Source: an uncultured Aminicenantes bacterium (GTDB lineage Bacteria; Acidobacteriota; Aminicenantia; UBA2199). Taken from it: a stretch of 63,529 bases of DNA. The position numbers and the translations under genes were made by a program. A model generated the notes under the pieces. It made no database searches. It was not told the DNA's origin and saw only the letters and a program-made list of their open reading frames with translations. Location: NCBI GenBank assembly GCA_965195285.1, contig CBDAFS010000006.1, positions 1 to 63,529 on the forward strand, written 5' to 3'. This document shows positions 4,530 through 32,043 of the stretch, piece by piece. Each line of letters starts with the position of its first letter. Within the stretch, counting starts at the first letter, position 1.

Positions 4530-4536
4530 GTAATCT

Positions 4537-4986: not shown

Positions 4987-4998
4987 ACAGGAGGATAA

Positions 4999-5661: not shown

Positions 5662-5723
5662 TTCTCTTTTGGGTCTGTAAAAGGGAATTCTTTTTCAATA
5701 AAAACCGAAAACTAAAAAAAAAG

Positions 5724-5769
5724 TTGACAGAGAGTGGTTTTTATTTTATAATAATGAACAACGTTCTTT
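5724..5769 (+). promoter_or_regulatory. sigma70 promoter plus palindromic operator of tetR-feoB
   Basis: Perfect TTGACA-17-TATAAT, then GAACAACGTTC (5756-5766). Confidence 0.8.
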
Positions 5770-5782
5770 TATGAGGTGATGA

Positions 5783-13241: not shown

Positions 13242-14834
13242 TTACATGTTTATCTGAATGATATCGCTGTCGGTTTTCTGGGTGAAGAGGTCTTTCACGT
13301 CAATAACAATATCATATTTACCCTTGCCGATTCCGCCAAAATTCAGGGACAGGCTGATCTCTTTCTGTTTGGCGTTTAAATCTTTGCTCTGGTCAAAAAC
13401 AGTGATGTCCTGTCTGTTTTTGATACGAATCCGGATATTGAGTTTGCCTCCGAGATCGTTTTTCATATAGAAATCGGTCAGAGTCAGGGTAAGTGTTTTA
13501 TCTTTAAATGAAGCTTTTTTAATCTTGACCGGGGGCCCTTCAACCACTTTAAGCTTTGTTTCCTGTGGTAATAGACCGGTCCTGAGGGACTCATCATATA
13601 AAACCTTATGCCTTCTTTTATTTACTTTAACCTTGATCTTCCCGAGTTCATCCGGGTTTTCCGGTGCATAGGTGAGCAGATAATAGATATCTTGCTCCTT
13701 ACTGATGGCGTCCAATGCCAGGTCAACTTTTTTAGAATTAACCAGTATACCCCCGCTTTGCTTGCATACTTCATTCAGGTTTGCTTCCATGTCATTGGCC
13801 ATCCGGATATAATCGGTATCCTGTACCAGGGAGGGAATGTTGGTCCGAATAAATATCGAATGATGAATGGCATTTACCCTGGAGAAAATCCGGCTGACTT
13901 CTTCGGAAGGGAAATCATTGGATACTTTCTGGGCACGGTCAATTTCAGTGAGCAGCTTATTGATTAGTCTGGAAAAAATCACAAGTTCCTGTCTGACGCT
14001 GATTTGCCATCCGGCGATCAGAGTTCGCAGGATTCTTCGTATATCAGTGGACAGGATAATCCTGGGAAACAATTCCATCTGATAAAAGTTGATCACCCAT
14101 TTTTCCCTGTTGATTTTTTCCAAAAGTCTGGAAAATTGATAGTATTGCTCAATATCCGGAACCAGATACCTGGTCTTGTAGTCATTCCAGATCATTAAAT
14201 ACCTGGTTAAAAAATCCTTGATTACATAGTGTGTGGATTCCCCTCCTCTTTCAGAACTTCCGCTTCGTCTAATTTCGGTTTCAAATTTGGCCATGTTCAA
14301 TTCCTGCTCAATCTGTTTGATATACTGAAACATCGAAAGTCGGTCATAGTGACTTTCCTTTTTTATCATTTTTTCGATGTCTTCCCGGACCAGATTTTTT
14401 TCTTCCAGATTGTAAAATGCCTGGGTTTTTTTATTGACAATCACCAGAAGTTGGTCTGATTCACTGATAATTTCATTGAAGAGATAATCCAGTCCCTTTT
14501 TAAAATCATCATTGTAGTCAGTGGTTTGAAAGATCAGCACAAAGTAGCGTCCCGCCAGGGTCTGGTACTGGCCGGACTCAGGCCGGATGGTCAGGGTTCC
14601 GATCTTTTTTCTTTTGATGAAGAATCCGTTTATAGTCTGGAGTTTTTTCCCCTCAAATATTTTAAAGTCATCTTTGGTGAGATTATCGACAGGCCTTCCT
14701 TTGTAATGCACCCGAACCGGAACCTCAACATTGACCACATCAATCTTTTCTTTGACTGGCTGGTCCTGTTGTGAATCCAGTACGGGAAAAAGCAGGAGTA
14801 GAATGATGAAGATGAATGCCATTTTATTACTCAT
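13242..14834 (-). CDS. secreted VWA-related hypothetical protein (paralogue)
   Basis: Shares VNVEVPVRV, EKWVINFYQ.E.FP and YYLLTY with 11571..13160. Confidence 0.7.
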   Translation of the reverse strand: MSNKMAFIFIILLLLFPVLDSQQDQPVKEKIDVVNVEVPVRVHYKGRPVDNLTKDDFKIFEGKKLQTINGFFIKRKKIGTLTIRPESGQYQTLAGRYFVLIFQTTDYNDDFKKGLDYLFNEIISESDQLLVIVNKKTQAFYNLEEKNLVREDIEKMIKKESHYDRLSMFQYIKQIEQELNMAKFETEIRRSGSSERGGESTHYVIKDFLTRYLMIWNDYKTRYLVPDIEQYYQFSRLLEKINREKWVINFYQMELFPRIILSTDIRRILRTLIAGWQISVRQELVIFSRLINKLLTEIDRAQKVSNDFPSEEVSRIFSRVNAIHHSIFIRTNIPSLVQDTDYIRMANDMEANLNEVCKQSGGILVNSKKVDLALDAISKEQDIYYLLTYAPENPDELGKIKVKVNKRRHKVLYDESLRTGLLPQETKLKVVEGPPVKIKKASFKDKTLTLTLTDFYMKNDLGGKLNIRIRIKNRQDITVFDQSKDLNAKQKEISLSLNFGGIGKGKYDIVIDVKDLFTQKTDSDIIQINM

Positions 14835-14864
14835 GATGCCTCCTCTTGGTTAATGCCGATTTTA

Positions 14865-16019
14865 TTAATAGTAATATCCCTTAATGGTTCGAATTTTATA
14901 TCTTTTCTTTCCCTTCACACTGACGGTTATCTTGCGAAACCTTTTCAGTTTGCCTTTCTTTTGGGGTTTGAATTGAAGTATATATTTGGCTTTTATATCT
15001 CTGCGGATCTCACGATAGATGGAGGGGATATCGCTAATGTCATCGAAAAGGAAGGTAATCCCACCTGAAGATACAGAAATGTTTTTTAAGATATCCTGAT
15101 AGCGGATGTCATCATAAAAAGAGGTTCTCTTTCCAATCGAATAGATCACGGAATTTGACCGTTCCACTCTTTTGATCAGGGTAAAGGGGTCAATGTAAGA
15201 ACTGTTGTCTTCGCCATCCGAAAAGAGGATGATGATATTCCGACCGGGAACCCCTTTCAGTAGCTTTGTGCAGTAGGCGACGGCATCATAAAGGGCTGTT
15301 GCTCCGAAGGGAAAGGCAATGGATAATGAATTGATGAGTTCATCGATATTGTTGGTAAAATCAGTATCCTCAAAGACCTCATGATTGAACATCACGATAA
15401 TGGCTTTGTCTTTTTTGGTAATCAAGGCTTCCAAAAAGATTTTGGCTGCATCCTTGACATCACCGATTTTATCCTTCATTGAGGAACTGATGTCCATTAG
15501 AAGTACCAGATTAAATTTGGTTTTTCCTTTTTTATCAAAATAAGTGATCTTTTTATCAACGCCCTCTTCGGTGATGATAAAATCATCCAAATTCAGGTCC
15601 TTGATATAATACCCATTCTGGTCGGTCACCACGACCGGAACCACTACCTGGGCAACATCAACCATGCGGGCATCGTCAAATTGATAAGAATTTATTTCGC
15701 TTTCCAGTATGACAATCTTGTGTATATCCTTTACCAGCAGCTTTAAGGTCCGGTTCTTGGGAATTTGACCGAAATCATAGTCTATAACATAAGGGGGAGC
15801 AGAAAGGTCTTTTAGAAATTTACCATCCAGGTAGATTTCCACGGAGCGAATCTTTTTCGGATCAATGTCCCTGAATTTAACTTCAATTTTCCTTTTACCG
15901 ACCCAAATGTCATCATTCAGCGGTGAAGCAAACCAGACTCTGGGGGTTTCCGAGAAAATAACCTGAAATCCAAAAAGAATTATCAATAAAAACCAACCTG
16001 TTTGTTTTAAACGGATCAT
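14865..16019 (-). CDS. VWA domain protein with N-terminal Ig-like domain
   Basis: MIDAS DISSS, GATALYDA, LFSDGED; signal peptide. Confidence 0.85.
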   Translation of the reverse strand: MIRLKQTGWFLLIILFGFQVIFSETPRVWFASPLNDDIWVGKRKIEVKFRDIDPKKIRSVEIYLDGKFLKDLSAPPYVIDYDFGQIPKNRTLKLLVKDIHKIVILESEINSYQFDDARMVDVAQVVVPVVVTDQNGYYIKDLNLDDFIITEEGVDKKITYFDKKGKTKFNLVLLMDISSSMKDKIGDVKDAAKIFLEALITKKDKAIIVMFNHEVFEDTDFTNNIDELINSLSIAFPFGATALYDAVAYCTKLLKGVPGRNIIILFSDGEDNSSYIDPFTLIKRVERSNSVIYSIGKRTSFYDDIRYQDILKNISVSSGGITFLFDDISDIPSIYREIRRDIKAKYILQFKPQKKGKLKRFRKITVSVKGKKRYKIRTIKGYYY

Positions 16020-19000
16020 TTTAACCTCACGTGACCTTTTTCTTGGAGTTTTTTTAGAATTTTTGTTAGGTGTGAATTGTTTAGAATATCAAAAATAAAG
16101 TATGTACTGAAATAATCTTTTATATAGTTCTGGGAAAAATATTTCCTGCATACATTGTACAGGTAATGATACAAGAATTGTCCCAAAAGTCTGGGAGGTA
16201 ACATTTTTTTATGGGAATGATAGGCAGCTTTGATTTTGAATTCATTAATCATTTCTCCTCCGGTCCAGTTGTTATCATAAAGGTTGGAGATTTCCTGGGG
16301 GAAAAGTTGATATTTTTGGGGTCTTAGGTTGCCAAAAGTGTGGTAATATACACCACCGAAATAATCAATTTCTTCTTGAACGCTTTTACTCAGATGGGTC
16401 TTTGTCAGTATGCCCAATTTATCGAAGGCAGAAAATTCTTTAAGGTATTTGTTTTTTCCCAGAAAGTTTTCTCCGAGCCTGAAAATTTCAGTGAAAAATA
16501 GGTAATACTCGTTGCTCTTATCATTGAGAAAATCGATTATTTTCCGATAGTGATAACCGGTGGTTATACTTTTAATTTCCTGGATGACCTCTTGATTGAT
16601 CTGGGTATTGTTTTTGGCCTTTTGAATGAGCTCCAATCCGAATTCAGTCAAAAGACCAATATATGATTGGCTGTTGGAGATAAGGGGAACCGGGTAAAAT
16701 TCAAGAATATTAAGAATAACCGATTGAATCTGCTTCTTGTCGTATATGATGTTCCTACTGAAAAGATGATCCTTCCAGCTTTGAGAAAACAAGATGTTGA
16801 GTCTTGAAAGTCCTCCCTGAAAGTAAAATCCCGAAAAGCGGTTTTTTATGGTGGGGGTTTTACAGTAATTCCAGGGTGTATACTCCTTGGTTTCTTCGAA
16901 ATCATGAAGGCGGGTAAAATTGGGATTTAAAAAGATTCTTAACCGTTCATTTTTGGCATTGAGGGCATAGGTCAGGGCCAGGAGATAATCCTGTAATTGG
17001 TGGATTAAATAATCGGATTTCAGTTTGGCAATGATGTTATTGATTTCCGTTGAAGGTGCTTTGGACTCCAATTTTAAAGCCAGATTTTGGACATCTCTTT
17101 CCAGATCTTCTCTAACATATTTTTTAATCCGGGAAATAATAAATCTGGGGGCATCATCACTGATGTCGGGATGGGGCAGTTGATTGAAGGCCTCAACTAG
17201 CTGAATTTTATAGGCGGGAATATTCAGCTTGTCCCCTTGTTCTGCTCTTTTCAATATTTGTTTCACTTCAATCAGGGTTGAGAGAGGGCAAACCTCTTGT
17301 GACTGAAGAATGTCATTGATGGTGGTTCTGGTACTGTCTTGAATCATGAATTTGTGTTGTCGGTTATTTATCTGAATGTACTGGTTGGGTATACCCTTTA
17401 AAATACTGGAAATCATGGCGTTGTCAATGGTATTCCGGTTGGGGTAGATGTTCATCTGGGTTTTGAAGAAATCAAAAATTTGATCGAAGCATTGTGATTT
17501 ATCAAGCGGAATCTTTATCAATTTATCGATTATCGTATCATAGTCCAGAAGATGGGAAGCGTATTTGGCCTGATAAGAGAGAATTTCGAACAGGGATTGG
17601 AAAATCGCTGTGAAAAGGATTCGGTCTTTCCGATTCTGCTTATCAAGCCGGATTACCCAGTCAATTATTTGACTGACCAGCTGGGGGTTTTTTACAGGGA
17701 TTTTTTCAATAAAATCTATTAGTATATTGTAATCCTGATAGTGTTCAAATAATTTGTGTATATTATCATCTGTCATAATTTCCGGTCGATGGTGAAACTT
17801 GGAATACAGAGAGATGAATTTTTGCAGGGAAGTCAACTCTTTTTTGTTGCTTGAATTCTCCAGTAAAGCCTTATACAGATGGAACAGTTCCGGTTTGTCG
17901 GTATCTGGCCTGGAAGCAGGTATAGGTCGACCACTGATTGTATCAATCCAGGATTCAAGTTTACCGGGAAAGGTCACTTTTCCATCCTTTACTTTCAATG
18001 CGTAAAGCAGGGTGAAAAAGTTAAAATTACCCAGTCTGGGGAATCTGGAGGTCTGCAGCTTTCCCTTTTTGCCAAGGGAAATTTTGTCTAAGATGGTTTG
18101 CATTTTTTCTGAATTAAAATCCAAAAGCAGGATTTTCCGGCTAGATTCCGGCAGGAAGAATGAGAAAACATAGAGATAGTTGAGTTTCCCATCCTGTTTG
18201 GTGGCAATTCCCTTGATAAATCCAAACGGGTCATGGGAAAGATCACTGCCACATAGTTGGGACCAGAAAGAGGCGGCTTCATCACCACCGGGCAAAATCA
18301 ATTTGTTATCATTGCTGCGTAAGGCATGGGATAATAGATACATCCCCATCAGCAATTTCTTGTCCTGGTATATCTGCTTCCAGGCCTGGGATTGAGGGGC
18401 GAGAGAATTGATATAGTTGATCTCATCTTCTGAAAAGCGATATAAAACCGCCATCAACAGAGAGAATCGTTCATTCATTAAGAGATATTCAAAAAAGGAA
18501 TGGGCATTGATTTCCAGGCCGGTGATGGTTTTCAGAAACTTAAAATCCCAGGGTATCTGAGTGGTTGATCCACTCAACCTGAAGTAGAGACGCTTGGTTT
18601 GGTTGATTTGCCTCTCCATCTTCTCGATGTCGATCCGAGAAAAACGATAATAATCGATGATTCCGGTTGACGCATCAATCATGATTTTATACTGACCGTT
18701 TTCCTCCTTTCTCAATTCCAGGCCCAGGAATCCCATTAACCGGATAGCCTGTTTCATCCCCTCATCCTGGCTGATATCAATGGTCATATGGGGTTTGCCA
18801 TCGGTGGTTTTTTTTCGGACGATCTGTCTTAGTTTTTTATGAATCATGGTGACATTCAGAAGTTTTCTTCTGATACCGGAGTCGAACAACTCTTCATTCG
18901 GGGGGTCTGAAAATAACAACCGGTCGTTCAGATAGTAAATGAAGTCGTTATCGGGCAGGTTATAGAAAAAATCCGTATAGTAGCAAATGTGATGAATATT

Positions 19001-19096
19001 TCCCGGCAGGATGATGGTCTTATCGGCCATCAAATGAATACTGAATATTGAAAGCAGAAAAATAAGGATGCATTTCTTGATGGGTCTAACCTTCAT
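16016..19096 (-). CDS. large secreted helical hypothetical protein
   Basis: 1026-aa ORF with signal peptide; 4-bp overlap with the VWA gene. Confidence 0.75.
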   Translation of the reverse strand: MKVRPIKKCILIFLLSIFSIHLMADKTIILPGNIHHICYYTDFFYNLPDNDFIYYLNDRLLFSDPPNEELFDSGIRRKLLNVTMIHKKLRQIVRKKTTDGKPHMTIDISQDEGMKQAIRLMGFLGLELRKEENGQYKIMIDASTGIIDYYRFSRIDIEKMERQINQTKRLYFRLSGSTTQIPWDFKFLKTITGLEINAHSFFEYLLMNERFSLLMAVLYRFSEDEINYINSLAPQSQAWKQIYQDKKLLMGMYLLSHALRSNDNKLILPGGDEAASFWSQLCGSDLSHDPFGFIKGIATKQDGKLNYLYVFSFFLPESSRKILLLDFNSEKMQTILDKISLGKKGKLQTSRFPRLGNFNFFTLLYALKVKDGKVTFPGKLESWIDTISGRPIPASRPDTDKPELFHLYKALLENSSNKKELTSLQKFISLYSKFHHRPEIMTDDNIHKLFEHYQDYNILIDFIEKIPVKNPQLVSQIIDWVIRLDKQNRKDRILFTAIFQSLFEILSYQAKYASHLLDYDTIIDKLIKIPLDKSQCFDQIFDFFKTQMNIYPNRNTIDNAMISSILKGIPNQYIQINNRQHKFMIQDSTRTTINDILQSQEVCPLSTLIEVKQILKRAEQGDKLNIPAYKIQLVEAFNQLPHPDISDDAPRFIISRIKKYVREDLERDVQNLALKLESKAPSTEINNIIAKLKSDYLIHQLQDYLLALTYALNAKNERLRIFLNPNFTRLHDFEETKEYTPWNYCKTPTIKNRFSGFYFQGGLSRLNILFSQSWKDHLFSRNIIYDKKQIQSVILNILEFYPVPLISNSQSYIGLLTEFGLELIQKAKNNTQINQEVIQEIKSITTGYHYRKIIDFLNDKSNEYYLFFTEIFRLGENFLGKNKYLKEFSAFDKLGILTKTHLSKSVQEEIDYFGGVYYHTFGNLRPQKYQLFPQEISNLYDNNWTGGEMINEFKIKAAYHSHKKMLPPRLLGQFLYHYLYNVCRKYFSQNYIKDYFSTYFIFDILNNSHLTKILKKLQEKGHVRLK

Positions 19097-19162
19097 AGTT
19101 GATCTCCGTTTAAAATGAAATTTGTTCTGATATTATTCTTTGCATGATTGGGCATGTAATAT

Positions 19163-19191
19163 ATACGGTTCATAAAGCCGGAATCGGATAA
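19163..19191 (-). promoter_or_regulatory. candidate ECF-type promoter TTATCC-N18-CGTAT
   Basis: Same motif and spacing found at 20636-20664; a sigma70-like TTGACA-16-TATGAT also lies at 19234-19261. Confidence 0.5.
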
Positions 19192-19280
19192 ACCATTTTT
19201 TTTCAGTTGCGGATTATGTTTACCAAAGTATGTATCATAATGATTCAGGTCCTGATGTCAACAATGAACGGCAAAATTAT

Positions 19281-20612
19281 TTAATTTTCTTTTACAATAC
19301 GGAATCCGTAATCATAATCTTTTTCATAAGGATCTTTGGATCTACGGTTGGCCGACCGAATATCACTGGCTGGTGAGGTAATGCCTCCGCCTCTTATTAC
19401 CCGGTATATACCACTCGTCGGTCCCTGGGGGTTTTGATAGGGGGATTGGGAATAATAGGTGGGACTGTAGTAATCCTGGCACCATTCCCATACATTCCCG
19501 GCCATTTGATAGATACCGCTGGGGGTTGCTCCCGCACCATAGTTGTATGTATTTCTGACGCCTCTACCACAATCAAGAAAATTGGCAAGGTCACAGTTCG
19601 GAGGGGTGTTGCCCCAGGGGTAGCGATTTTGATTGGTCCCCCGGGCAGCCCGTTCCCATTGGGCCTCGGTGGGAAGGCGGATGTTCTCCCCGGTTTTCTG
19701 GGAAAGCCACTGGCAAAAGGCATTGGCTTCCTCCCAGCTGACATAGATTGCGGCATAATCTTTTTGCGAGGTTCTCAGATAATATTCATTGGACAGGGTT
19801 TGTCTTCCCGTATCCATACAGAATCGATCATACTGCGATACTGAAATTTCATATTTGGAAATATAATAGTCATCCAGATATACTTTATGTACCGGGGTTT
19901 CATCCGAATCACCTTCGTTAAAATCATCTCCCATCAGAAACTCTCCGGAAGGAATGTAAACCCAGTCGATCTCCGGGGTTTCAATATCGATGTCATCCTG
20001 GTCTTTTTTATTCAGTAAAAAATAAATAACCACGCCGACAATGATTACCCCGGCAATAACTGCAATCCAGGGAAATTTTTTTCTTTTTTCCTTTCTGCCT
20101 TGATATTGAATGACAGCCTTTTTATCAATGGGTTTAACCGGCTCGGGTTCCTTGAACTTGAAATGATATTCATCAATTTCTTCCTCTTCACCCAAAAGCG
20201 GATCGGTCTCCACTTCAGTTTCCATTAAATCTTTTTTGATAATGCGGATGGCATTCGAATCAAATCCGTTGATTTCCGGTAATTCCTCAATCTGGCCGTT
20301 ATTCAGCATTCGTTGAATCTTAGCCGAAAATGCCCTGGCCAGGTTTTCCTTGTCCATTTTTTCATAGCAGGCACAAAAAAGAATATAGATTTTGGCTTTG
20401 AAGATGAATTCTTCTGTCCCCAGCAGGTTTTCGGCTTCCTCCAAAAAGGAAGTCGCCTCTTCATAATGTCCCTGATTATACAATTTTAATGCCTGGGAAA
20501 ATTTTTCCTGTTTGGCATTCTGTGAACTGAGATTTAGGTTCCCCAAAAAAAGCAACATCATCAGCATAAATGAAACAAATTTGGTCATGGGGTAATTTTT
20601 AAAGTCTGTCAT
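19281..20612 (-). CDS. FGE-sulfatase (SUMF1/GldK-like) domain protein with N-terminal TPR-like region
   Basis: RLPTEAQWE, MAGNVWEW, RGG, GFR motifs; internal KKFPW-TM segment. Confidence 0.88.
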   Translation of the reverse strand: MTDFKNYPMTKFVSFMLMMLLFLGNLNLSSQNAKQEKFSQALKLYNQGHYEEATSFLEEAENLLGTEEFIFKAKIYILFCACYEKMDKENLARAFSAKIQRMLNNGQIEELPEINGFDSNAIRIIKKDLMETEVETDPLLGEEEEIDEYHFKFKEPEPVKPIDKKAVIQYQGRKEKRKKFPWIAVIAGVIIVGVVIYFLLNKKDQDDIDIETPEIDWVYIPSGEFLMGDDFNEGDSDETPVHKVYLDDYYISKYEISVSQYDRFCMDTGRQTLSNEYYLRTSQKDYAAIYVSWEEANAFCQWLSQKTGENIRLPTEAQWERAARGTNQNRYPWGNTPPNCDLANFLDCGRGVRNTYNYGAGATPSGIYQMAGNVWEWCQDYYSPTYYSQSPYQNPQGPTSGIYRVIRGGGITSPASDIRSANRRSKDPYEKDYDYGFRIVKEN

Positions 20613-20635
20613 GCTTTTTTCCTCATATATTGATA

Positions 20636-20664
20636 ATACGATAATAAGAAGTGATAGTGGATGA
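20636..20664 (-). promoter_or_regulatory. candidate ECF-type promoter TCATCC-N18-CGTAT
   Basis: Matches the 19163-19191 motif; sits just upstream of the SD and ATG at 20612. Confidence 0.5.
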
Positions 20665-20721
20665 TGGAAATTATTTTTTTTCAGTAGTTGCTACCCGGGT
20701 CAGGTTACTTTATAATATATC

Positions 20722-23592
20722 GTGAATCCAATGAAAAAAATTATTCCAATTTTAGTTATATTGTTGACGGTCCTGTTATGGGGATGCAGGCAGAAACCGG
20801 TTTTGGCTCCGGTCAAGCCGGTTACGGCTCCCAATCCTTTTGATATAACCGCTCAAAAGTTAGCCGAAGAAGCCCAATTTAAAAGTTCATCCTATTATTT
20901 GAAAAAGGCAATCGAAATATATCAAAACCGGGAACACTGGGGTAAGGTCATTCAGTGCCATATCAAGATTGCCAATAATTACCATCAAATGGGTAATGAC
21001 CGGAAAGCCATGGGCCATTTGAACCAGGCATTAACCCTGGTTTTAAAATATTCCGGACATGAATTCACAGACCTGGCCAATCAATTCAAAAAACTGGCCC
21101 ATACACATTTTTCAAATAAAGATTATGATAAAGCTCTGGAATTGTATGAAAAGGCGCTGAAACTTCAGTTAAAGGTTTTCAGTGAAAATCATCTCCAGAT
21201 TGCCAAAATTTATAACAGTATTGCCCTTGTTTACTGGAACAAGGACAATATCCGAAAAGCAAAGGAATACTATGACAAATCACTGTCGATAAAATTGAGA
21301 GGATTCTATGACTTCCGGATGGATCTAACCAAGAAGTATGCTTACATTAATGGTGGTGAAACCCATTATACCAGTTTTCGCCAACTCAGGGACCAGTTGG
21401 AGAAATCTCTGAAAATTTACAATGAAACCTATGGGAGTTTTCATCCGCTGATGGCCACTCTTTATGAAAGAATCGGGATTTTACACAGTTTCGAGGGTTC
21501 CTTTGAAAGGGCCATGCAGTACTTTCGGAAATCCCTGAATGTCAGAATCGAAACTTTTGGCGATGAAAACATGGCGGTTGCCAGCAGCTATCATAATATT
21601 GGTGTTTGCCTTCGCTTGCAAAAGGAATATCTCGAAGCTGAAAAGTTCTTGGAACAGTCACTTCAAATAAAAAATGTTAAATACGGGGAGAGTCATCCCT
21701 TTGTAGCTGATTCATATTATCAGTTGGGCAAGGTTCACTTTTTTCAGAATCAATTTGAAAGAGCGCTTCATTTTTTTCAAAAATCCCTGATTGCCATGGT
21801 TCCCCAGTTTTCTGACCTTCGAATCAATTCCAACCCCAGGTTGGAGAAAGTTTTTGTCAAAAGCGAATTATTAAAGGTGCTGGCCGACAAAGCGGAAACA
21901 TTGAACAAACAATATTTATTTGATCCGAAACAAACAAAAGCCCTGAAAATATCCTTTGAAACCTATAAGCTCATGTCTCATTTGATTGATATGATTCGAA
22001 GGGAATATAGATCTGCCGATTATAAATTGGTTTTTGGAGAAAAGTCACATGAAATTTACAATAAAGCCATTCAGGTCGCTTTAACCCTCTATGAGTTAAC
22101 CGGGGAAAAAATATTCAAAAAAGAAGCGTTTGGTTTTTCAGAAAAAAGTAAGGCAGCCCTTTTGTATGAATCTGTCATTGAATCGAATGCCCGAAAATTT
22201 GCCGGGATACCTCTGGAACTGCTGGAAAAAGAGAGAAAGTTAAAAAAGGAGCTGGCTTTTTTCGGGACCAATCTTGAAAAAGAATATAGAAAAGAGTCCA
22301 ACATGAATCTGCAAAAAGTTGCCCAATTGGAAACCGATTACTTTCAAAAAAAAAATGAATACCAGAAGTTAATAAAATATTTTGAAGAAAATTATAAAAA
22401 ATACTTTCAGTTGAAATATCAACATCTTCCGGTTGCAATTTCAGATTTACAGAAACGGTTGGATTCAAACACTGCCCTGGTTGAATATTTTTGGGGAAAC
22501 AAAGTAATCATCGCTTTTGTTGTAACCAAAGAAAGTCATCAAATATTCTCTCAACCCGTTGATGCTGATTTTAACCGGATTGTTCAATCCTATTACCGCT
22601 CGATAAAAAAAATTGAGGAAAAATCTTTTCTGTATTTAAGCCGGAAATTACACCAAATTTTAATTGAACCCATTCTCAAATGGATTGGAGACAAAAAAAA
22701 ACTGATCATCATTCCCCATGGAGATTTATATTACGTTCCCTTTGAGTCTTTGGCTTCTGAAGGCAGTCAGGAAAATGATTTTCAATATGTTGATTATTTA
22801 ATCAGACATTACTCTATTTCCTATCACTATTCAGCAAGTTTGTGGTTTTTTAAAGATCTGTCTGTTGCCTCCAAGCGGAAAAAATCCTTTATTGGATTTG
22901 CACCGGTATTCAACGAGAAAGGAAATCAGGGCTATATCCTTTCCAGTGAGGAACCGGTACGGTCCCATCAGGAGAACTACCCGGATTCCCGTTCTTCAAA
23001 CCTAGAGGGGAGAAAGTTCCCTCCATTACATGCTTCAGAAAATGAGATACTTGATATTATTGAATTATTCAGAAAAAACCGGAAAAGAGCTGTCGGTTAT
23101 TTTCATAAACAGGCAACCGAAAGCAATTTCAAATTATCAGAAACCAAAGATTACAATTATATCCATATTGCCACCCATAGCCTGAGTGATAGGATAAATC
23201 CAAAACTCTCCGGGCTTCTTTTTTTTCATGACAAGGATAAAATGATCAGTGAGGATGGAATTTTATATTCAGAGGAAACTTTCAACCTGGATCTGGATGC
23301 AGAATTGATTGTACTGAGCAGCTGTGAAAGCGGGATCGGAAAACTGGTAAAGGGTGAAGGTATGATCGCCCTGAACCGGGGGTTTTTTTATTCTGGAGCA
23401 AATCACATCGTTTTTTCTTTATGGAAAGTAGAAGATAAAGCAACCTGTCGTTTAATGATTGAATTGTATAGGAATATTTTAAAGAATATACCTCTGTCGT
23501 CGGCCCTTCAGCAGGCAAAATTAACTTTAATCAAGGATCGATTTACGGCTTTTCCAAAATATTGGAGCGGATTTATTTTGGTTGGGCGGTAA
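20722..23592 (+). CDS. TPR-CHAT (caspase-like) protease, lipoprotein
   Basis: Lipobox LLWGC; kinesin-light-chain-like TPRs; IIIPHG, HIATHS (His), LSSCESG (Cys), SLWKVED, P.YWSGF. Confidence 0.93.
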   Translation: MNPMKKIIPILVILLTVLLWGCRQKPVLAPVKPVTAPNPFDITAQKLAEEAQFKSSSYYLKKAIEIYQNREHWGKVIQCHIKIANNYHQMGNDRKAMGHLNQALTLVLKYSGHEFTDLANQFKKLAHTHFSNKDYDKALELYEKALKLQLKVFSENHLQIAKIYNSIALVYWNKDNIRKAKEYYDKSLSIKLRGFYDFRMDLTKKYAYINGGETHYTSFRQLRDQLEKSLKIYNETYGSFHPLMATLYERIGILHSFEGSFERAMQYFRKSLNVRIETFGDENMAVASSYHNIGVCLRLQKEYLEAEKFLEQSLQIKNVKYGESHPFVADSYYQLGKVHFFQNQFERALHFFQKSLIAMVPQFSDLRINSNPRLEKVFVKSELLKVLADKAETLNKQYLFDPKQTKALKISFETYKLMSHLIDMIRREYRSADYKLVFGEKSHEIYNKAIQVALTLYELTGEKIFKKEAFGFSEKSKAALLYESVIESNARKFAGIPLELLEKERKLKKELAFFGTNLEKEYRKESNMNLQKVAQLETDYFQKKNEYQKLIKYFEENYKKYFQLKYQHLPVAISDLQKRLDSNTALVEYFWGNKVIIAFVVTKESHQIFSQPVDADFNRIVQSYYRSIKKIEEKSFLYLSRKLHQILIEPILKWIGDKKKLIIIPHGDLYYVPFESLASEGSQENDFQYVDYLIRHYSISYHYSASLWFFKDLSVASKRKKSFIGFAPVFNEKGNQGYILSSEEPVRSHQENYPDSRSSNLEGRKFPPLHASENEILDIIELFRKNRKRAVGYFHKQATESNFKLSETKDYNYIHIATHSLSDRINPKLSGLLFFHDKDKMISEDGILYSEETFNLDLDAELIVLSSCESGIGKLVKGEGMIALNRGFFYSGANHIVFSLWKVEDKATCRLMIELYRNILKNIPLSSALQQAKLTLIKDRFTAFPKYWSGFILVGR

Positions 23593-24394
23593 TGTCATTT
23601 TCAATGAAAAATTTTCCGACATAGAGTAAATCAGTTTGATTTTCAAGTTTCCAGTAATATAATCCAGGGGGCAATATTTCTTTTAAAACAAACTGGTTGG
23701 CTTGAATTGTGTATTCGAATATTACCTCATTATGGTTGCTGAGAATTTTTAACTGAGAGGGCTTGTCTGTAAATGATTCCCAGGCGAATATAATATTATC
23801 GATTAAAGTGGAATTATTGGCTGGTGAATTCACTTTTATGGTCTCATTGCGGAACTGGCTGTTGATCATATATTCCAGATTGGGATTGATGGCGAAATTT
23901 TTGTTTTGGCTGTCTTCCACAGACCTTTTTTCCGTCTGGGAGTGTTTTATATTTTCTATTCGGGGTAATAATTTTATTGAAGTATGGGAATTCTGGCTGG
24001 CCGGGTTTGAGATGGAGGCGGAATTACCTTTTAAATCTATTTTGTTTTGAAAAAGTTGTCTATCGATAATGGTAAAATAAAAAGTCAAGAACAGTGCCAT
24101 GAAAAAGAAAGAGGCAGCAATCCTTTTCAGATATGTATATTGTTTCCGGGGAGATTTCTCAATGGTCAGCTCTGGAATCATATCTTTAAAAGGTCTTTGC
24201 TTTTGTAGTGACCGGGAATTTTTCAGACACAAAAACACATCCAAAATATTGTCTTTACAAATCGGGCAGCTCTCCACATGATTTAATATATTTTCAGTTG
24301 GTTTCGATGATTTTTCATTTAATAAATAGTCCACATAAATTGCTGTTTGATGATCATTTAAATGGCTTGTGTTGATATCATTTTTTGTTTCCAT
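23573..24394 (-). CDS. zinc-finger (HxxxCxxC) membrane anti-sigma factor-like protein
   Basis: HVESCPIC, one TM, C-terminal beta-rich domain (PGLYYWKL); coupled to the sigma-like gene. Confidence 0.75.
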   Translation of the reverse strand: METKNDINTSHLNDHQTAIYVDYLLNEKSSKPTENILNHVESCPICKDNILDVFLCLKNSRSLQKQRPFKDMIPELTIEKSPRKQYTYLKRIAASFFFMALFLTFYFTIIDRQLFQNKIDLKGNSASISNPASQNSHTSIKLLPRIENIKHSQTEKRSVEDSQNKNFAINPNLEYMINSQFRNETIKVNSPANNSTLIDNIIFAWESFTDKPSQLKILSNHNEVIFEYTIQANQFVLKEILPPGLYYWKLENQTDLLYVGKFFIENDITAQPK

Positions 24395-25383
24395 TATTGA
24401 TCCCCTTTAAATAAGTTCTTATTTTGATAATATAGATTGACTAAATCGGGTATGTTTTTTTGGTTATAAACCTGGTCATTATGGGTGCGGTTGAGATGTA
24501 AAATGATTTCGTCGATTTTCACAGTAATCCATTTCCTGAGGGTATCGCTTTTATTCTGTTTCCCTTCATTGCGATTGAATATACCAATGATACTTTCAAA
24601 TACCCGTTTGTCTTTTTTAAATCTAAAATCCTGAGATAATTGATTGATATCAGCGGCAGAGCAGTGAGGAAAATATTTTAATATGTCATCCGGTGTCATG
24701 GGGATACGAAACTTGATTTTCAGGCACAATTCAATTTTGGGTTGGGATTTATAATACATCCTGAATATAAAATGAAGTTTGGTTAGTTCCTCTTCAATGA
24801 ATAATTTATTGCTGGTGAATTCAAAATTTGTTTCCGGTAAAGGCTGCCTTATATCATCAAGATTAACCGTACTTAACATTTTATTTTTCCCCTCTCTGAT
24901 AATATCTATATATATATTACGGACGGTCACCATAAAATAGGATGTAAAAGAGGGGTTTTTTTTAAATTTAAAATCGTACAGTTCCTGAATCTTACCCATT
25001 TTATTCGATAACAATCGGGTAATAACCTCTTGAAGAATATCCTCTCGTTCATGAAAGATCATGTGTTTTGAATAAATATATCGGGAAATTAACCTCCGAT
25101 ATATTAAAATGATGATCTGAGGATAATCCCCCAAAATACTTTCAAAGCAAAGTATATCATTTATCATTTCCTTTAATTCCTCATCATTTCTGCTCAACTG
25201 GAAGGAATTTCGCCTGTTTGTATTGGCTTTGAGAAAATCTGTGAAATGCTTTAAAAGTATTTGATCCAAATCGGGGAAAAGGGTTCTGGGAAAAACATTG
25301 GCTGGGTAAAGTTGGTTTTTAATTACATCGCGGATCAATGCCTGTATTTCATTCAAATTAAAGTCCTTTACTTCAGCGGCCAC
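24394..25383 (-). CDS. atypical ECF-like sigma factor
   Basis: Region 2-like EDILQEVITRL...SFTSYFMVTVRNIYIDIIR; stop overlaps the anti-sigma start. Confidence 0.7.
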   Translation of the reverse strand: MAAEVKDFNLNEIQALIRDVIKNQLYPANVFPRTLFPDLDQILLKHFTDFLKANTNRRNSFQLSRNDEELKEMINDILCFESILGDYPQIIILIYRRLISRYIYSKHMIFHEREDILQEVITRLLSNKMGKIQELYDFKFKKNPSFTSYFMVTVRNIYIDIIREGKNKMLSTVNLDDIRQPLPETNFEFTSNKLFIEEELTKLHFIFRMYYKSQPKIELCLKIKFRIPMTPDDILKYFPHCSAADINQLSQDFRFKKDKRVFESIIGIFNRNEGKQNKSDTLRKWITVKIDEIILHLNRTHNDQVYNQKNIPDLVNLYYQNKNLFKGDQ

Positions 25384-25501
25384 TCTTTTTTTATAGCATA
25401 CCCCAGAGGTGTTTTCAATTATATTTTTTCCAGAGTGATCGAGTAGATTGTCCTTCCCATCTTATATGAATTATTTACCCGCTTGAAAAAAGAGAGAACT
25501 C

Positions 25502-27079
25502 TTAGTTGATATAGCCCAGGCGTTTCAATTTTTCAAGCTTTTTTCGATTGATATTTTTCTTTCCGAATTTTTGCTGCCCGATTTTTTTCTTTTGTTTAAG
25601 AGAATCCGAGAGAAAAAAAGAAAAGAACTCTCGTTCAGCTGATATAAGGTTTTTCCGATCAATTTGAGCCATAGGTGAAAATGAATCATCCAGAATCAAG
25701 TTGTACAGTTCTTTATTCCGGGAGTTGTTTTTCCAGTAATAAATTCCCTGATAGGGCCATTTGATGATGGATATTTTATTGGTTTTGGATCCGGGAAGAT
25801 AAGTGAATGAATAAATATTTTCATTTGGGGTATCTTCTTTTTCTAATAGATTAATAAATGAATGTTGAAAATTTTCATTTTTCAGGTTTAAAAGTTCAAG
25901 TACGGTAGAAGAAAGGCCCGACATTGAGACCGGTGATGTTATGATTTTTTGAGTTTTTCCAGGAATATATATCATGAGTGGCACTCTGATGAATTGCTGG
26001 TTTAAATATTCAACATGCCCCACCAATCCATCCCGTTCCCCCAGGCCTTCTCCGTGGTCGGAGAAGATAGCGATTATAGTATTATCAAACAAATTGAATT
26101 CCTCAACCTCTTGAAGAAATTCGCCGATGTGTTTATCCATATATTCCACTTCCTGCTGGTACATGATCCGAGCCGCTTTGATTTTAAGTTTGGGTAAAAC
26201 CTGAAGATGGATCCACTCTTCCTCTTCACATTCCAGGTTTATCCATCCACTTTGGCCAGTAAGAAAATGGCAGCCTGAAAAAATATCTTTTCTAAATTTT
26301 ATGTTTTCTGATTTTGCGGTGATATTGGCATCTGAAGTCAATTCGATAATTCCGATCCCCTGAAAATCGGAAGTCGGGTAATCTATATCAAATCTGAATC
26401 GGTGAGTTCCCGGCAGAAGTTTTATCTTGGGTAATATTTTACCCTTGTATGGGTTTAGCTCATTTATTTTTTTGCCATCCTGATAGATATTCATGATCGC
26501 TTTTACGGTTGGGGGGCCGTAGGGATAGTGGGGGTCCGAAAAGTGAACAAACATAAAAAATTTCTTGTTTTTTATATCTCTTAATTTTTGCCGGGCATGA
26601 AGGGAAATTTTGTCCGCGGTCAGAAATAAATGATGGATCTCTTCTGAGCAGAGTTTGGAATTGAACTCATCAAAACCCTTCCAAAACCCCGGTTCAATCA
26701 GAGACATAAGGGATATGATCCCATAGGTAAAGTATCCGTTATGCTTGAGAATCTCCTGTATTAATTTATATTTACCATCATATCGAAAATGGTTTTGGAT
26801 GACCCCAAGTTGATGGGGATAATATGATGTAAATATGGACAGATGAGAGGGCAGGGTCTCGGGTATGGTCACAAATGCTTTTTCAAATACTTGAGCCTTT
26901 TTTGAGAAATTTTTCAAGGCTGGAGTTTTTGATTTTGCCCCCCAACCGCTATCAACATAGTCAAAACGGGTGGTGTCCAGGCTTATAAAAATGAGGTTTG
27001 CCCCCCTGGTTCTGTTTTGATTTTGACAGCCGCCTACAATAGACATGGATATAACAATTAAGAGAAACCTGGTTGTCAT
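25502..27079 (-). CDS. sulfatase-like hydrolase/transferase
   Basis: ISLDTTR, TLPSH, DPHYPY, SDHGE, GH, LKRLGYI; start probably ATG 27079. Confidence 0.85.
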   Translation of the reverse strand: MTTRFLLIVISMSIVGGCQNQNRTRGANLIFISLDTTRFDYVDSGWGAKSKTPALKNFSKKAQVFEKAFVTIPETLPSHLSIFTSYYPHQLGVIQNHFRYDGKYKLIQEILKHNGYFTYGIISLMSLIEPGFWKGFDEFNSKLCSEEIHHLFLTADKISLHARQKLRDIKNKKFFMFVHFSDPHYPYGPPTVKAIMNIYQDGKKINELNPYKGKILPKIKLLPGTHRFRFDIDYPTSDFQGIGIIELTSDANITAKSENIKFRKDIFSGCHFLTGQSGWINLECEEEEWIHLQVLPKLKIKAARIMYQQEVEYMDKHIGEFLQEVEEFNLFDNTIIAIFSDHGEGLGERDGLVGHVEYLNQQFIRVPLMIYIPGKTQKIITSPVSMSGLSSTVLELLNLKNENFQHSFINLLEKEDTPNENIYSFTYLPGSKTNKISIIKWPYQGIYYWKNNSRNKELYNLILDDSFSPMAQIDRKNLISAEREFFSFFLSDSLKQKKKIGQQKFGKKNINRKKLEKLKRLGYIN

Positions 27080-27135
27080 CACTCTTGATAATAAGGCTTG
27101 TTTCCCTGCGATCATATTACACGTAAGTATGGAGT

Positions 27136-27402
27136 TTATTCTTCTGTTTTTTCAACGATGATGGTCAGTTTTGCCACCAGTGCTCCAATGGCACCCACTG
27201 CAGCCAGTACCGGAGCCAATGCCGCACCGACCAGGCCAATGATAAGAGGGATTTCAATAAGGGTCTTCCCTTCTTCATTTTTTATGATGATGCGGCGAAT
27301 ATTACCCTGATGGATTAGCTCCTGTATTTTACTGATGATTTCACTGCCATCCAATTTGAATTCTTGGGATTTGTTCCTGCCTGTTTCTTTCTTTTCTGAC
27401 AT
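27136..27402 (-). CDS. DUF4342 family protein
   Basis: ELIHQGNIRRIIIK...LIEIPL...LAPVLAAVGAIGAL. Confidence 0.85.
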   Translation of the reverse strand: MSEKKETGRNKSQEFKLDGSEIISKIQELIHQGNIRRIIIKNEEGKTLIEIPLIIGLVGAALAPVLAAVGAIGALVAKLTIIVEKTEE

Positions 27403-27701
27403 GATGATTCTCCTTGTATTGAGATGGTATCAGTTTAACAGGTATTGACACGCACTGCAATCCATATTTGGATCATTTTTCCCGATCCAAAAAAGTACGG
27501 GGGCAATGATACTTGAGGTGAACAACCAGACAGTCATTTCAATCCTGTAGGGTTTATTTTATCATAAAAATACTATTCGGGCTGTTGCTGCTGCATACGC
27601 TTATATCATTGGGAGACTGGCCGCTAATTTTTTCCTGTTGCCTTTTCAACATCAAGCAGTGGTTTGACACGCACCGTCGATTAAGCTAAAATTGAACGAT
27701 A

Positions 27702-28550
27702 ATGGGGCTTGTCACCAATAAATCTTATCAGCGATATGTGTATGCCATTTCTGATGCCACGGGAAAAACTTGCGAGACGGTGGTTCAGGCAGCCCTCAGT
27801 CAGTTTACAACCACTCAGATTATTTTAAAGACCATTTCCAATGTGCGATCCCTTAAACAGATAAATGAGGTGGTTGAAATGGCGGTTGCTGTTGATGGTA
27901 TTATCATTTATACAATGGTTTCCACCGAGTTAAGGCAAAAGTTATCAGAAATGGGTCGTCTGCATGCGGTACCGACGGTAGATATCCTGGGACCGGTACT
28001 CACCCGTTTTACGGATTTTTTTGAAATTTCACCTCTGGCTCAGCCGGGACTGTTTCGCCAGTTGGATAGCGATTATTTTAAACGGATTGAATCCCTGGAC
28101 TATACAATCAAACATGATGATGGCATTGGTGTTTCGGCTCTTAATGAGGCAGAGATTGTCATTCTGGGTGTATCAAGAACCACCAAAACCCCTGTAAGTA
28201 TTTATCTTTCCTACCGGGGATGGAAGGTTGCCAACATTCCCGTTATTCCGGGTTTTCAATTGCCCAAGGAACTTTTTTCTATTGACCAGGATAAAATAAT
28301 TGGCCTGAATATTAATCCCAACCGCCTTCACCTGATCCGGATGGAACGTCAATCAAAACTGAATAATTATGATCTGGGTGATTACACCGATCCGGAAAAA
28401 ATCAAGAGTGAAATTGCTTATGGATTGAGAATCTATCAAGAGAATTGCTGGCCGGTGGTAAGTGTCACCTATAAATCGATTGAAGAGACCGCAACTGATA
28501 TTATGCGAATTATTTATGCCAAAAAAGGTATAAAAAAGGGCAAAATGTAG
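27702..28550 (+). CDS. ppsR: PEP synthase/PPDK regulatory kinase-pyrophosphorylase (DUF299)
   Basis: ISDATG.T, HDDG, GVSRTTKTP, SIEETA; TTGACA-17-TAAAAT upstream. Confidence 0.92.
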   Translation: MGLVTNKSYQRYVYAISDATGKTCETVVQAALSQFTTTQIILKTISNVRSLKQINEVVEMAVAVDGIIIYTMVSTELRQKLSEMGRLHAVPTVDILGPVLTRFTDFFEISPLAQPGLFRQLDSDYFKRIESLDYTIKHDDGIGVSALNEAEIVILGVSRTTKTPVSIYLSYRGWKVANIPVIPGFQLPKELFSIDQDKIIGLNINPNRLHLIRMERQSKLNNYDLGDYTDPEKIKSEIAYGLRIYQENCWPVVSVTYKSIEETATDIMRIIYAKKGIKKGKM

Positions 28551-28556
28551 AATTCT

Positions 28557-29594
28557 ATGCTTATTCTGGGTATAGAAACCTCCTGTGATGAAACGGCTGC
28601 TTCTCTGATTGAGCGTGGTTCATCAAACCGGGTTCTGAATGAAAAAATTAAATCTCAAATCCCCCTGCATGCCAAGTATGGAGGTGTGGTTCCGGAAATC
28701 GCTTCCAGGAGTCACCTGGAATATATTGATTTAATTACCGATCAGGTTTTAAAAGAATCGGGTCGAACAATGAAGGAGGTTGATCTGCTGAGTGTTACCC
28801 AGGGGCCCGGCCTGATTGGCTCTCTGCTGGTCGGACTTTCCTTTGCCAAGGGATTGTCATATCAAAACCAAATCCCTCTGGTACCGGTTGACCATATTTT
28901 CTCTCATATTGAATCCGCATTCATTGATTACCCGGATATTGCCTATCCGCTGGTCGCTTTGGTGGTTTCAGGCGGCCACACATCACTATTCTTTCAAAAA
29001 TCGAAATTTGATCGCCGGCTCATATCCAAGACCCGGGATGATGCGGTTGGAGAGATTATGGATAAAATTGCCAAATTTTTTGGTCTAGGATATCCCGGAG
29101 GACCGGTTCTGGATAAAATATATCATTCCGGTGATCCCGCCTGTTTTACCTTCACTTTCCCCAGAATGAGTGATGGTTCAAATGATTTTTCCTTTTCCGG
29201 ATATAAAACAGCGGTATTGCGCCTGGCAAAGGAGAAATGCATTCTCTCCGAATCGCAGTTGTTTACCGATTTGATCGCCTCTTTTTTGCATTCGATTGTT
29301 GATTACTTACTGTTGAAAACCACTGAAGCTGTTAATCAATATTCAGCCAAATCCGTCATAGTGGCTGGCGGGGTTAGTAGGAATTCGCTGTTGAGGAAAA
29401 AATTTCAGGATGCCTTTAATAGAAAAAATACCCCAATTTATTTGCCATTACCCAAGTTTTGTACTGACAATGCATCAATGGTTGCCTGGATGGGATATGA
29501 AACCTTCAATCATTATCCGGACAGGAATTATTTCGATTATTATTTAAATGCCTACTCACGCGCATATTTCCGGGAGAGTGGTAAACATCGCTAG
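28557..29594 (+). CDS. tsaD: tRNA t6A threonylcarbamoyltransferase
   Basis: LGIETSCDET, GGVVPEIASR, VSGGHT, DDAVGE, TDNA. Confidence 0.97.
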   Translation: MLILGIETSCDETAASLIERGSSNRVLNEKIKSQIPLHAKYGGVVPEIASRSHLEYIDLITDQVLKESGRTMKEVDLLSVTQGPGLIGSLLVGLSFAKGLSYQNQIPLVPVDHIFSHIESAFIDYPDIAYPLVALVVSGGHTSLFFQKSKFDRRLISKTRDDAVGEIMDKIAKFFGLGYPGGPVLDKIYHSGDPACFTFTFPRMSDGSNDFSFSGYKTAVLRLAKEKCILSESQLFTDLIASFLHSIVDYLLLKTTEAVNQYSAKSVIVAGGVSRNSLLRKKFQDAFNRKNTPIYLPLPKFCTDNASMVAWMGYETFNHYPDRNYFDYYLNAYSRAYFRESGKHR

Positions 29595-29660
29595 TTGCTG
29601 ATTGAACATTCCGTGCTATTCTCTAAAAAAGATAATGAAGTACGGACCTGAAATGGTGAT

Positions 29661-31388: not shown

Positions 31389-31476
31389 TTGGATGTTATC
31401 TTACCAAATATCCAAATGGTTTTACAGGTGAATAAAGTTGGAACTGTTTTGTTCTAATGACCCGGGTGGTAAAAAC

Positions 31477-31902: not shown

Positions 31903-32043
31903 ATATAACCTCCTTTTTAACCTCTTCAAATTAGTAACATACTGAGATTTTAAAATCAATATTTAAATGAAAATTTTTTTTCAGGCTAATACCTGATTTT
32001 GGGTTTCATTGACAGGGGTTTTTGATTATAATAATATGGTTTC

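Follow-up and report, generated by a model that had tools for sequence, protein, structure and literature searches.

A TPR-CHAT gene convergent with a putative sigma/anti-sigma pair

The stretch of DNA analysed here (hereafter the window) comprises 63,529 nucleotides from an uncultured Aminicenantes bacterium (GTDB lineage Bacteria; Acidobacteriota; Aminicenantia; UBA2199; NCBI GenBank assembly GCA_965195285.1, contig CBDAFS010000006.1, positions 1 to 63,529 of the forward strand). It is contig C6 of a 3.28-Mb metagenome-assembled genome (MAG) that is 94.9% complete. We studied the segment at positions 20722-25383, which is taken up by three open reading frames (ORFs): a TPR-CHAT gene on the + strand (20722..23592) and, on the - strand, the genes of a putative anti-sigma factor (23573..24394) and of a sigma-like protein (24394..25383). 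The CHAT and anti-sigma ORFs are convergent and share 20 bp at their 3' ends (23573-23592), while the stop codon of the sigma-like gene and the start codon of the anti-sigma gene overlap in the sequence TAATG, which points to translational coupling of the pair. The members of this trio are single-copy families in the genome, the exception being a second, unrelated CHAT frame of 1444 aa on contig C31.

The CHAT gene encodes a protein of 956 aa if counted from the GTG codon at 20722. Residues 640-956 match the Pfam CHAT family (PF12770, clan CD) with an E-value of 5e-59 and 200.5 bits, against a cut-off of 24, and many TPR families match at about residues 60-360. When the profile of the CHAT family was run against the PDB sequences, the result was swamped by TPR proteins. 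The protein begins with a hydrophobic segment resembling a signal peptide and ending in LLWGC, whose cysteine (Cys22) is invariant in 12 out of 12 orthologues (31-64% identity). The same alignment shows His815, His819 and Cys868 to be invariant in all 12. His819 and Cys868, which we take to be the catalytic dyad from the motifs HIATHS and SSCESG, are each retained in 45 of 45 relatives from metagenomes. Because of the signal segment and the invariance of Cys22, His815, His819 and Cys868, the protein is predicted to be an exported lipoprotein with an intact His/Cys dyad. Among 34 distant full-length relatives, a lipobox is recognised by regular expression in 10, and most of the others begin, as judged by eye, with hydrophobic signal-like segments.

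A TATAAT hexamer resembling a -10 element was read by eye from the sequence at 20711..20716 (+ strand), that is, 5 nt before the GTG at 20722 and 14 nt before an ATG at 20731. Since the hexamer lies so near the GTG, the ATG at 20731 may be the true start of the CHAT protein. Its expression seems to be constitutive, from an mRNA with a very short leader or none. Hexamers similar to TATAAT are also found 5-20 nt before the CHAT start in loci L021, L024, L028, L029, L032, L034 and L035, which suggests near-leaderless or leaderless CHAT mRNAs in many loci.

The second protein, of 273 aa, carries the motif H39-x3-C43-x2-C46 and a fourth, upstream ligand, H11. H11, D22, H39, C43 and C46 are retained in its 14 orthologues, where a hydrophobic helix comes next, then a variable linker and, last, a domain that is again conserved. 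The structure model (mean predicted local distance difference test score, pLDDT, of 69) places three N-terminal helices at residues 14-25, 34-42 and 44-64, a transmembrane (TM) helix at 84-116, a disordered stretch at 115-164 and a beta-sandwich at about 181-267, ahead of which lies a conserved segment, L173-E174-x7-R182. Since five basic residues precede the TM helix on its N-side, the zinc domain is predicted to lie inside the cell and the sandwich outside. Conservation extends to 79 metagenome relatives, where H11 is kept in 75, H39 and C43 in 77 each, C46 in 78, L173 in 74, E174 in 69 (with D in 9 more) and R182 in all 79. The invariant residues on the putative periplasmic side are R182, F203, Y247, W248 and K249. 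On the basis of these alignments, the model and the four kept ligands, we assign the protein to the zinc-binding anti-sigma (ZAS) type, as a predicted single-pass member of a new, Ig-tailed family.

A fold search with the anti-sigma model was filled by matches to the C-terminal sandwich, which resembles generic Ig/FN3-like domains only (best Z 8.2). Among the matches are C-terminal domains (CTDs) of the type IX secretion system (T9SS), of which that of mirolase had a Z of 7.5 and a root-mean-square deviation (rmsd) of 2.1 A over 76 of 88 residues. Weak sequence matches to T9SS sorting models were also seen among relatives of the anti-sigma (Por_Secre_tail in 2 of 19, CHU_C in 1 of 19). The Pfam zf-HC2 model (PF13490) gave no match to the window protein, and matched 1 of the 14 orthologues (E 0.018) and 2 of 19 relatives (best E 1.5e-8).

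The third protein has 329 aa. In its model (mean pLDDT 80) an N-terminal extension of about residues 1-78 is followed by a sigma-2 domain (about 79-169), a disordered linker (167-192) and sigma-4-like C-terminal helices, with additional C-terminal helices beyond the plan of extracytoplasmic function (ECF) sigmas. In an exhaustive VIA fold search the top 25 rows were all sigma factors, sigma fragments or initiation-complex chains. Residues 79-169 superpose on sigma-2 of SigW (Z 7.9, rmsd 3.0 A, 82 residues) and of SigK (Z 7.9, rmsd 2.6 A, 79 residues), values within the Z range of 7-9 that this tool grades as middling. Several rows span residues 79-300, with 153 of 168 residues of AlgU and 132 of 138 of BldN aligned, and in rows 2, 7 and 16 region 1.2 of larger sigmas is matched by parts of the N-terminal extension. 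Models of sigma-70 region 4 gave no match in the window protein. Of 14 orthologues, 12 give weak Sigma70_r2 matches, below or near threshold, the best with an E-value of 3.2e-5. Because of these region 2 matches and the fold, we interpret the protein as an ECF-like sigma that has diverged very far and is extended at its N-terminus by some 78 residues.

Within the extension (residues 1-78) the pattern LYP...FP..LFPDL is conserved and helices are predicted at 10-25, 39-53, 55-63 and 67-78. More distant sigmas from metagenomes seem to lack it, as their tblastn matches begin at about residue 60-90.

An original prediction, made from the letters of the window, had described this locus as a TPR-CHAT lipoprotein with intact dyad that overlaps by 20 bp, 3' to 3', a coupled sigma/anti-sigma pair whose anti-sigma has an HxxxCxxC motif, a TM helix and an extracytoplasmic domain. 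The analyses above bear out this description. Its sigma label fares less evenly, being backed by the fold and the weak region 2 matches among orthologues, while the sequence scores stay under the curated cut-offs.

Conservation and distribution of the trio

The module is real and strongly conserved. We surveyed 60 relatives of the source genome for the phyletic pattern of its genes; as these genomes are kin, the counts are not independent events. The sigma-like gene is found in 17 of the 36 genomes of the same family, spread over 8 of 32 genera when the source genome is counted in. The class has eight other families, and all 24 of their genomes in the survey lack the gene. The 17 genomes are also exactly those that contain a CHAT orthologue (E <= 1.8e-122). 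Three genomes of another family contain CHAT matches at the level of paralogues only (28-34% identity). Cutting out the locus from the sigma-bearing genomes gave 16 loci, in 13 of which the CHAT gene is adjacent and convergent; in one of the remainder the contig ends early, and two have no adjacent CHAT gene. A pattern scan with one genome per species yielded 26 loci, many of them from the same genomes, and in 20 of the 24 that contain both the sigma and the anti-sigma a convergent CHAT gene is adjacent.

A scan of metagenomes for the anti-sigma retrieved 80 loci at 23-62% identity. In 61 of them the sequence continues for 400 nt or more downstream, and 51 of these have a convergent CHAT gene that ends next to the anti-sigma gene, mostly with a gap between -13 and +40 nt. 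Likewise, 71 loci continue for 400 nt or more upstream, and 64 of these have the sigma-like gene there. Clustering of all ORFs over the 80 loci returned the trio alone as recurring genes (in 80, 65 and 51 loci), the next neighbour being found in 7. The convergent position of CHAT is kept down to 25-28% identity of the anti-sigma. That the neighbourhood would be conserved in other genomes had been put forward as a check on the original prediction, and these counts answer it positively. A profile of the anti-sigma family retrieves 1807 clusters (50% identity) at E <= 0.001, 1187 at E <= 1e-10 and 273 at E <= 1e-30. The best 150 of these relatives are 162-333 aa long, so none of them is fused to a TPR-CHAT. 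When 401 genomes were sampled evenly across the phylum, members of the anti-sigma family turned up in 5 of 11 from the family of the window (one of them a weak, partial match) and in 0 of 389 elsewhere.

One further locus (L059, 7980-8845) comes from a GC-rich MAG labelled Bacteroidota. It contains a truncated sigma-like ORF of 217 aa followed by an ORF of 112 aa with the ZAS motif only, with no TM helix, no C-terminal domain and no CHAT gene alongside, and is probably a decayed copy.

Predicted contact between the CHAT protein and the anti-sigma

We predicted the complex of the CHAT protein (residues 121-956) with the putative extracytoplasmic part of the anti-sigma (residues 113-273), each supplied with its own alignment. 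The complex scored 0.72 (median of 0.73, 0.72 and 0.72), while the best of three controls scored 0.00. Of 80 solved complexes, 58 score at least this high, as do 2 of 110 mismatched pairs, a calibration that is only rough for alignments supplied in this way. The runs share at least 51% of their contacts, and the pLDDT of the partners is at least 65. On the CHAT side the predicted interface consists of residues 626, 629-633, 685, 687, 765-767, 769, 772, 817-820, 866-869, 901-908, 940-944 and 946-947, and on the anti-sigma side of residues 171-176, 179-183, 187, 208, 222, 249, 251, 254-256 and 259. The model thereby supports a placement of the L-E-x7-R segment and one face of the sandwich on the CHAT domain, with the neighbourhoods of both dyad residues in contact. 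Such a docking is compatible with the anti-sigma as substrate or as inhibitor of CHAT, and cannot tell the two apart.

Because of the lipobox of the CHAT protein and the N-in topology of the anti-sigma, the CHAT protein and the C-terminal domain of the anti-sigma are both predicted to be extracytoplasmic. One finding that would have spoken against a link between them, their location in different compartments, did not come out, and the modelling of the pair that had been proposed as a check places the anti-sigma at the active-site region of CHAT.

A conserved promoter motif and the likely output

The original prediction had also named a promoter motif, TYATCC-N18-CGTAT, and proposed the expression of adjacent envelope genes as the output. 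Exact matches to this motif, which is of ECF type, occur twice in the window, each time ahead of a gene on the - strand. One (TTATCC-N18-CGTAT, 19163..19191, - strand) lies 66 nt upstream of a gene for an exported protein of 1026 aa with a hydrophobic signal-like segment at its N-terminus (16016..19096, - strand). The other (TCATCC-N18-CGTAT, 20636..20664, - strand) lies 23 nt upstream of a gene for a membrane protein of 443 aa with an FGE-sulfatase domain (19281..20612, - strand; Pfam FGE-sulfatase, 9.1e-48), and is also found in a locus of the same genus (L020, 93-95% identical). By number alone the motif does not stand out in the window, where 1.46 matches with up to one mismatch are expected by chance. 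It carries weight because it is conserved across orthologous upstream regions. We compared the 200 nt ahead of each orthologue of the 1026-aa gene (protein identity 32-42%), which gave 16 distinct regions; 15 of them contain TCC[G/A]-N15-18-CGTA on the coding strand, usually in the form TCCGTTTT...CGTA and 13-125 nt from the start codon. In 2000 shuffles the mean number of motif-bearing regions was 0.11 and the maximum 2, and the opposite strand gave 0 of 16. Thus the motif holds as a conserved element ahead of the adjacent envelope genes, and its count in the window, taken by itself, does not exceed chance.

The 1026-aa gene appears to be the first of a likely target operon for exported proteins. 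Its stop codon is overlapped by the gene of a 384-aa VWA protein of the acidobacterial VWFA type (14865..16019, - strand; Pfam VWA 3.4e-12; TIGR03436 5.3e-46, above cut-off), which is syntenic in loci L030-L035, and the last gene encodes an exported, VWFA-related protein of 530 aa (13242..14834, - strand; TIGR03436 2.2e-14, below cut-off). The 1026-aa protein matched no Pfam or NCBIfam family, its profile matched no PDB sequence, and the ESM Atlas gave no usable match. Its gene is present in all 17 sigma-bearing genomes and in two incomplete ones (73% and 82% completeness). The FGE-sulfatase-domain gene also adjoins CHAT in loci L020, L024, L041, L078, L091 and L134, and probably belongs to the regulon in this and some other genera. 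Elsewhere in the genome, a paralogue of the 530-aa gene (43% identical, contig C27) has TCCGTTTTTTTTTTTATTTTCGTAT 41 nt upstream. A loose regular expression gave 49 matches genome-wide, mostly in coding DNA, and 9 after an intergenic filter; as putative promoter sites we trust only the two copies in the window and that of the paralogue on C27. Since the 1026-aa gene lies beside CHAT in just 7 of the 80 metagenome loci, the output would be lineage-specific. The CHAT gene itself was considered as a target of the sigma and rejected, as it is preceded by TATAAT and not by an ECF-type motif and is convergent to the pair.

In loci L048 (8904-8934) and L049 (5862-5892) the motif, as TCCGTTTTT...CGTA, is situated where the sigma gene ends, immediately ahead of the anti-sigma gene. 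The genus concerned has no 1026-aa gene next door. Such a position would mean sigma-dependent expression of the anti-sigma, that is, negative feedback.

Other neighbours may be mentioned here. The sigma gene is immediately preceded, on its own strand, by a sulfatase gene (25502-27115, - strand; Pfam Sulfatase 6.3e-33), an arrangement kept only within the genus (L020-L022). The sulfatase and the FGE-sulfatase-domain membrane protein flank the trio on opposite sides, which raises the possibility of an enzyme/maturase pair; for the FGE-like domain of the 19281-20612 protein, the GldK, PvdO and EgtB models score above true FGE. Near the 530-aa paralogue on contig C27 (locus L161) we found a gene for a 720-aa fusion of prokaryotic E2, ThiF (E1) and JAB domains (652-2814, + strand) and one for an 882-aa TIR-TPR protein (3179-5827, - strand), which together look like a ubiquitin-like/TIR conflict system.

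Proposed mechanism and alternative explanations

We propose, with about as much confidence as doubt, that the trio is a self-contained trans-envelope switch, a two-protein (split) version of the DdvA/DdvS type described below. At rest, the three-helix zinc domain of the anti-sigma (H11, H39, C43, C46) would hold the ECF-like sigma in the cytoplasm, while the periplasmic L-E-x7-R segment and the Ig-like sandwich would dock on the CHAT domain, at or next to His819/Cys868. A signal, presumably sensed by the TPR half, would trigger cleavage of the anti-sigma by CHAT in the periplasm, with the invariant Arg182 as candidate P1 residue. An RseP-type site-2 protease of the genome, which does encode an M50 protease (221.7 bits), would then remove the membrane stub and free the sigma. 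The freed sigma would transcribe TCC[G/A]-N15-18-CGTA promoters, namely those of the 1026-aa/VWA/530-aa operon, the FGE-sulfatase-domain gene and the 530-aa paralogue. The more specific claim, that the large ZAS family (1807 clusters) has in the CHAT lipoprotein its dedicated site-1 protease, which is gated by a signal and cuts after the invariant Arg, before an Ig-like handle docked in the active-site cleft, is tentative, and we rate its chances slightly below even.

Several points weigh against this reading. The mechanism is a hypothesis drawn from genes and models of uncultured organisms, and we infer the binding of sigma by anti-sigma, the cleavage and its site, the site-2 step and the pairing of sigma with promoter. 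It is linkage that ties the sigma to the TCC[G/A]-CGTA motif, and in most loci the sigma gene itself has no such promoter. The choice of Arg182 as P1 is a guess, as the predicted interface lists residues for each partner and not the residue facing Cys868, and a cut at 182 would leave a periplasmic stub of ~65 residues, long for RseP-type entry. In the fused system of Myxococcus xanthus, mutants of the dyad in DdvA behave as the wild type, and in the available text of that paper no signal is reported and cleavage by CHAT is left unproven (PMC11506125). An adjacent CHAT gene is missing from 4 of the 24 genome loci and from 10 of the 61 metagenome loci; the four genome exceptions hold an orthologue-level CHAT (38-52% identity) elsewhere, one 6.7 kb away, two at contig ends and one on another contig. 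The window anti-sigma matches no Pfam family and stays below every curated threshold, Foldseek with its model against the PDB returned nothing at E <= 0.001, and its family profile found no anti-sigma or sigma among the PDB sequences. Similarly, the window sigma reaches 14.8 bits with Sigma70_r2 (E 0.026; cut-off 24) and 26.6 bits with TIGR02937 (E 3.8e-6; cut-off 42.9), its model gave nothing at E <= 0.001 with Foldseek against the PDB, its family profile matched no sigma among the PDB sequences, and the Z values of its fold matches are the middling ones given above. The low scores and empty searches would also be expected if the 329-aa protein were not a working sigma, being instead a sigma-fold relic or some other helical regulator in a module that is not transcriptional, and its length, about 130-150 residues above that of a typical ECF sigma, points the same way. 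We give this explanation very little credence, in view of the top 25 rows of the fold search, which are all sigma-related and in several cases extend across both domains, the translational coupling of the gene to one for an HxxxCxxC membrane protein, and the ECF-type -35/-10 motif conserved next door.

A different question is whether the predicted contact, if real, leads to a site-1 cut at all. The anti-sigma segment and Ig domain could be a securin-like pseudo-substrate or tether that silences CHAT, or the CHAT/TPR protein could shield the anti-sigma from other proteases; a signal that separates the two would then leave the anti-sigma open to attack by a conventional site-1 protease and release CHAT to process exported proteins such as the 1026-aa/VWA set. 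The predicted docking at the active-site region fits an inhibitor as well as a substrate, and the neighbouring exported proteins are co-inherited with the trio. Separase is under the control of its inhibitor securin (as cited in PMC11506125), and TonB-dependent transducers protect anti-sigma factors from proteolysis, according to the title of PMC11637429. Against this, the strict retention of the dyad, in 45 of 45 relatives, means that the activity of CHAT matters; an invariant Arg right before a folded domain is more suggestive of a cleavage site; and the 1026-aa/VWA neighbours occur in only 7 of 80 distant loci, so that this set, missing from most of them, is not a general CHAT substrate. 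We consider this explanation unlikely, if worth keeping in view. It is quite improbable, in our judgement, that the pair works as a redox or thiol switch like RsrA and ChrR, which are ZAS-type sensors, with oxidation of the zinc site freeing the sigma and CHAT as a merely co-located or co-regulated envelope protease. The H/H/C/C ligands are indeed conserved, and a possible input of reactive oxygen species to the ZAS domain has been raised for DdvA (PMC11506125, available text). However, a cytoplasmic sensor needs neither a TM helix nor a periplasmic domain with conserved R182, F203, Y247, W248 and K249; the phyletic pattern of CHAT follows that of the pair, with its convergent position kept down to 25-28% anti-sigma identity; the predicted binding scored 0.72 against 0.00; and the CHAT gene is preceded by TATAAT and not by an ECF-type promoter.

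Comparison with known systems

The split switch that we favour would be a form of regulated intramembrane proteolysis. In the RseA/DegS/RseP type of this process, a single-pass anti-sigma receives a first cut in the periplasm and is then processed by an M50 site-2 protease. The first protease proposed here differs in being a caspase-fold CHAT encoded with the pair, and not a serine protease or a signal peptidase. PorU, a clan-CD cysteine protease, and the CTD of the T9SS offer an analogy only, in which a protease of this clan likewise stands beside a small C-terminal beta-sandwich; the trio has no T9SS context, and the match of its sandwich is a generic one of middling Z.

The relative named in the original prediction was Craspase of type III-E CRISPR, in which the TPR-CHAT protease Csx29 cleaves Csx30. 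With its parts Csx29, Csx30 and CASP-sigma, it too couples a TPR-CHAT protease to the release of an ECF-like sigma (PMC10028731). As described in the available text of that source, Craspase is cytoplasmic, is guided by RNA through Cas7-11 and has no membrane anti-sigma, whereas the CHAT protein of the trio has an export signal. The CAS_III-E_sigma model gave 12.8 bits on the window sigma (cut-off 100), and no cas family was found among the 13 ORFs scanned from 13242 to 31959. The trio as a Craspase-like system was rejected, as the scanned ORFs include no cas genes and the protease is predicted to be exported; the accompanying claim that the system is independent of CRISPR agrees with this. Sigmas of group ECF54 have CHAT, subtilase and carboxypeptidase genes nearby and no anti-sigma, and control by proteases has been proposed for them (PMC8999054, available text). 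Compared by description, they differ from the trio, where a ZAS-type anti-sigma is always present. The word CHAT does not appear in the main text of the ECF re-classification paper (PMC7826278), whose group descriptions stand in the supplements. Caspase systems that include an ECF sigma together with a TPR protein are mentioned by Kaur et al., in a cytoplasmic setting unlike the present one (PMC8195603, available text).

The nearest characterised relative is found in M. xanthus and is closer to the trio than Craspase, the comparison made in the original prediction. According to the available text of PMC11506125, DdvA is a transmembrane ZAS anti-sigma with a CHCC zinc site in a three-helix N-terminal domain, fused to a periplasmic TPR-CHAT. 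The active site of its CHAT domain faces the linker of the partner protomer, and the authors' proposal is an autoproteolytic cut in trans, after which RseP would act (PMC11506125). DdvA/DdvS (PMC11506125, PMC6061681) and the trio thus have in common an ECF-type sigma, a single-pass ZAS anti-sigma, a periplasmic TPR-CHAT with a His/Cys dyad and a proposed site-1 cut by CHAT, a likeness that is set by the description of domains and not by sequence alignment. In DdvA the TPR-CHAT is part of the anti-sigma chain and would act across the dimer; here it is a separate, predicted lipoprotein encoded on the opposite strand, and the anti-sigma has an Ig-like end. The outputs also differ, since DdvS drives a defence island with a cyclic oligonucleotide-based antiphage signalling system (CBASS) and CRISPR, and the likely targets of the trio are exported VWA-type proteins. 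DdvA-like fusions have been reported, in the available text, only in Myxococcota and one Comamonas (PMC11506125).

As an idea, a CHAT-mediated site-1 cut thus has a precedent, and the novelty lies in the split form, acting in trans, and in the Ig-tailed ZAS family; full-text searches of the literature found no paper on a separate exported TPR-CHAT paired with an anti-sigma. Should the CHAT lipoprotein prove to be the dedicated site-1 protease of this family, regulated intramembrane proteolysis would have its first entry point of the caspase type. Because the anti-sigma family numbers 1807 clusters in environmental data and the trio is kept down to about 25% identity, an answer would annotate thousands of genes. 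For the uncultured Aminicenantes, the locus points to a regulated set of exported VWA-type proteins. In DdvA, the one case studied of an anti-sigma with a periplasmic TPR-CHAT, the protease and its presumed substrate form one chain (PMC11506125, available text). In the trio, the two are separate proteins, so that the mechanism proposed for DdvA could be tested directly in trans.

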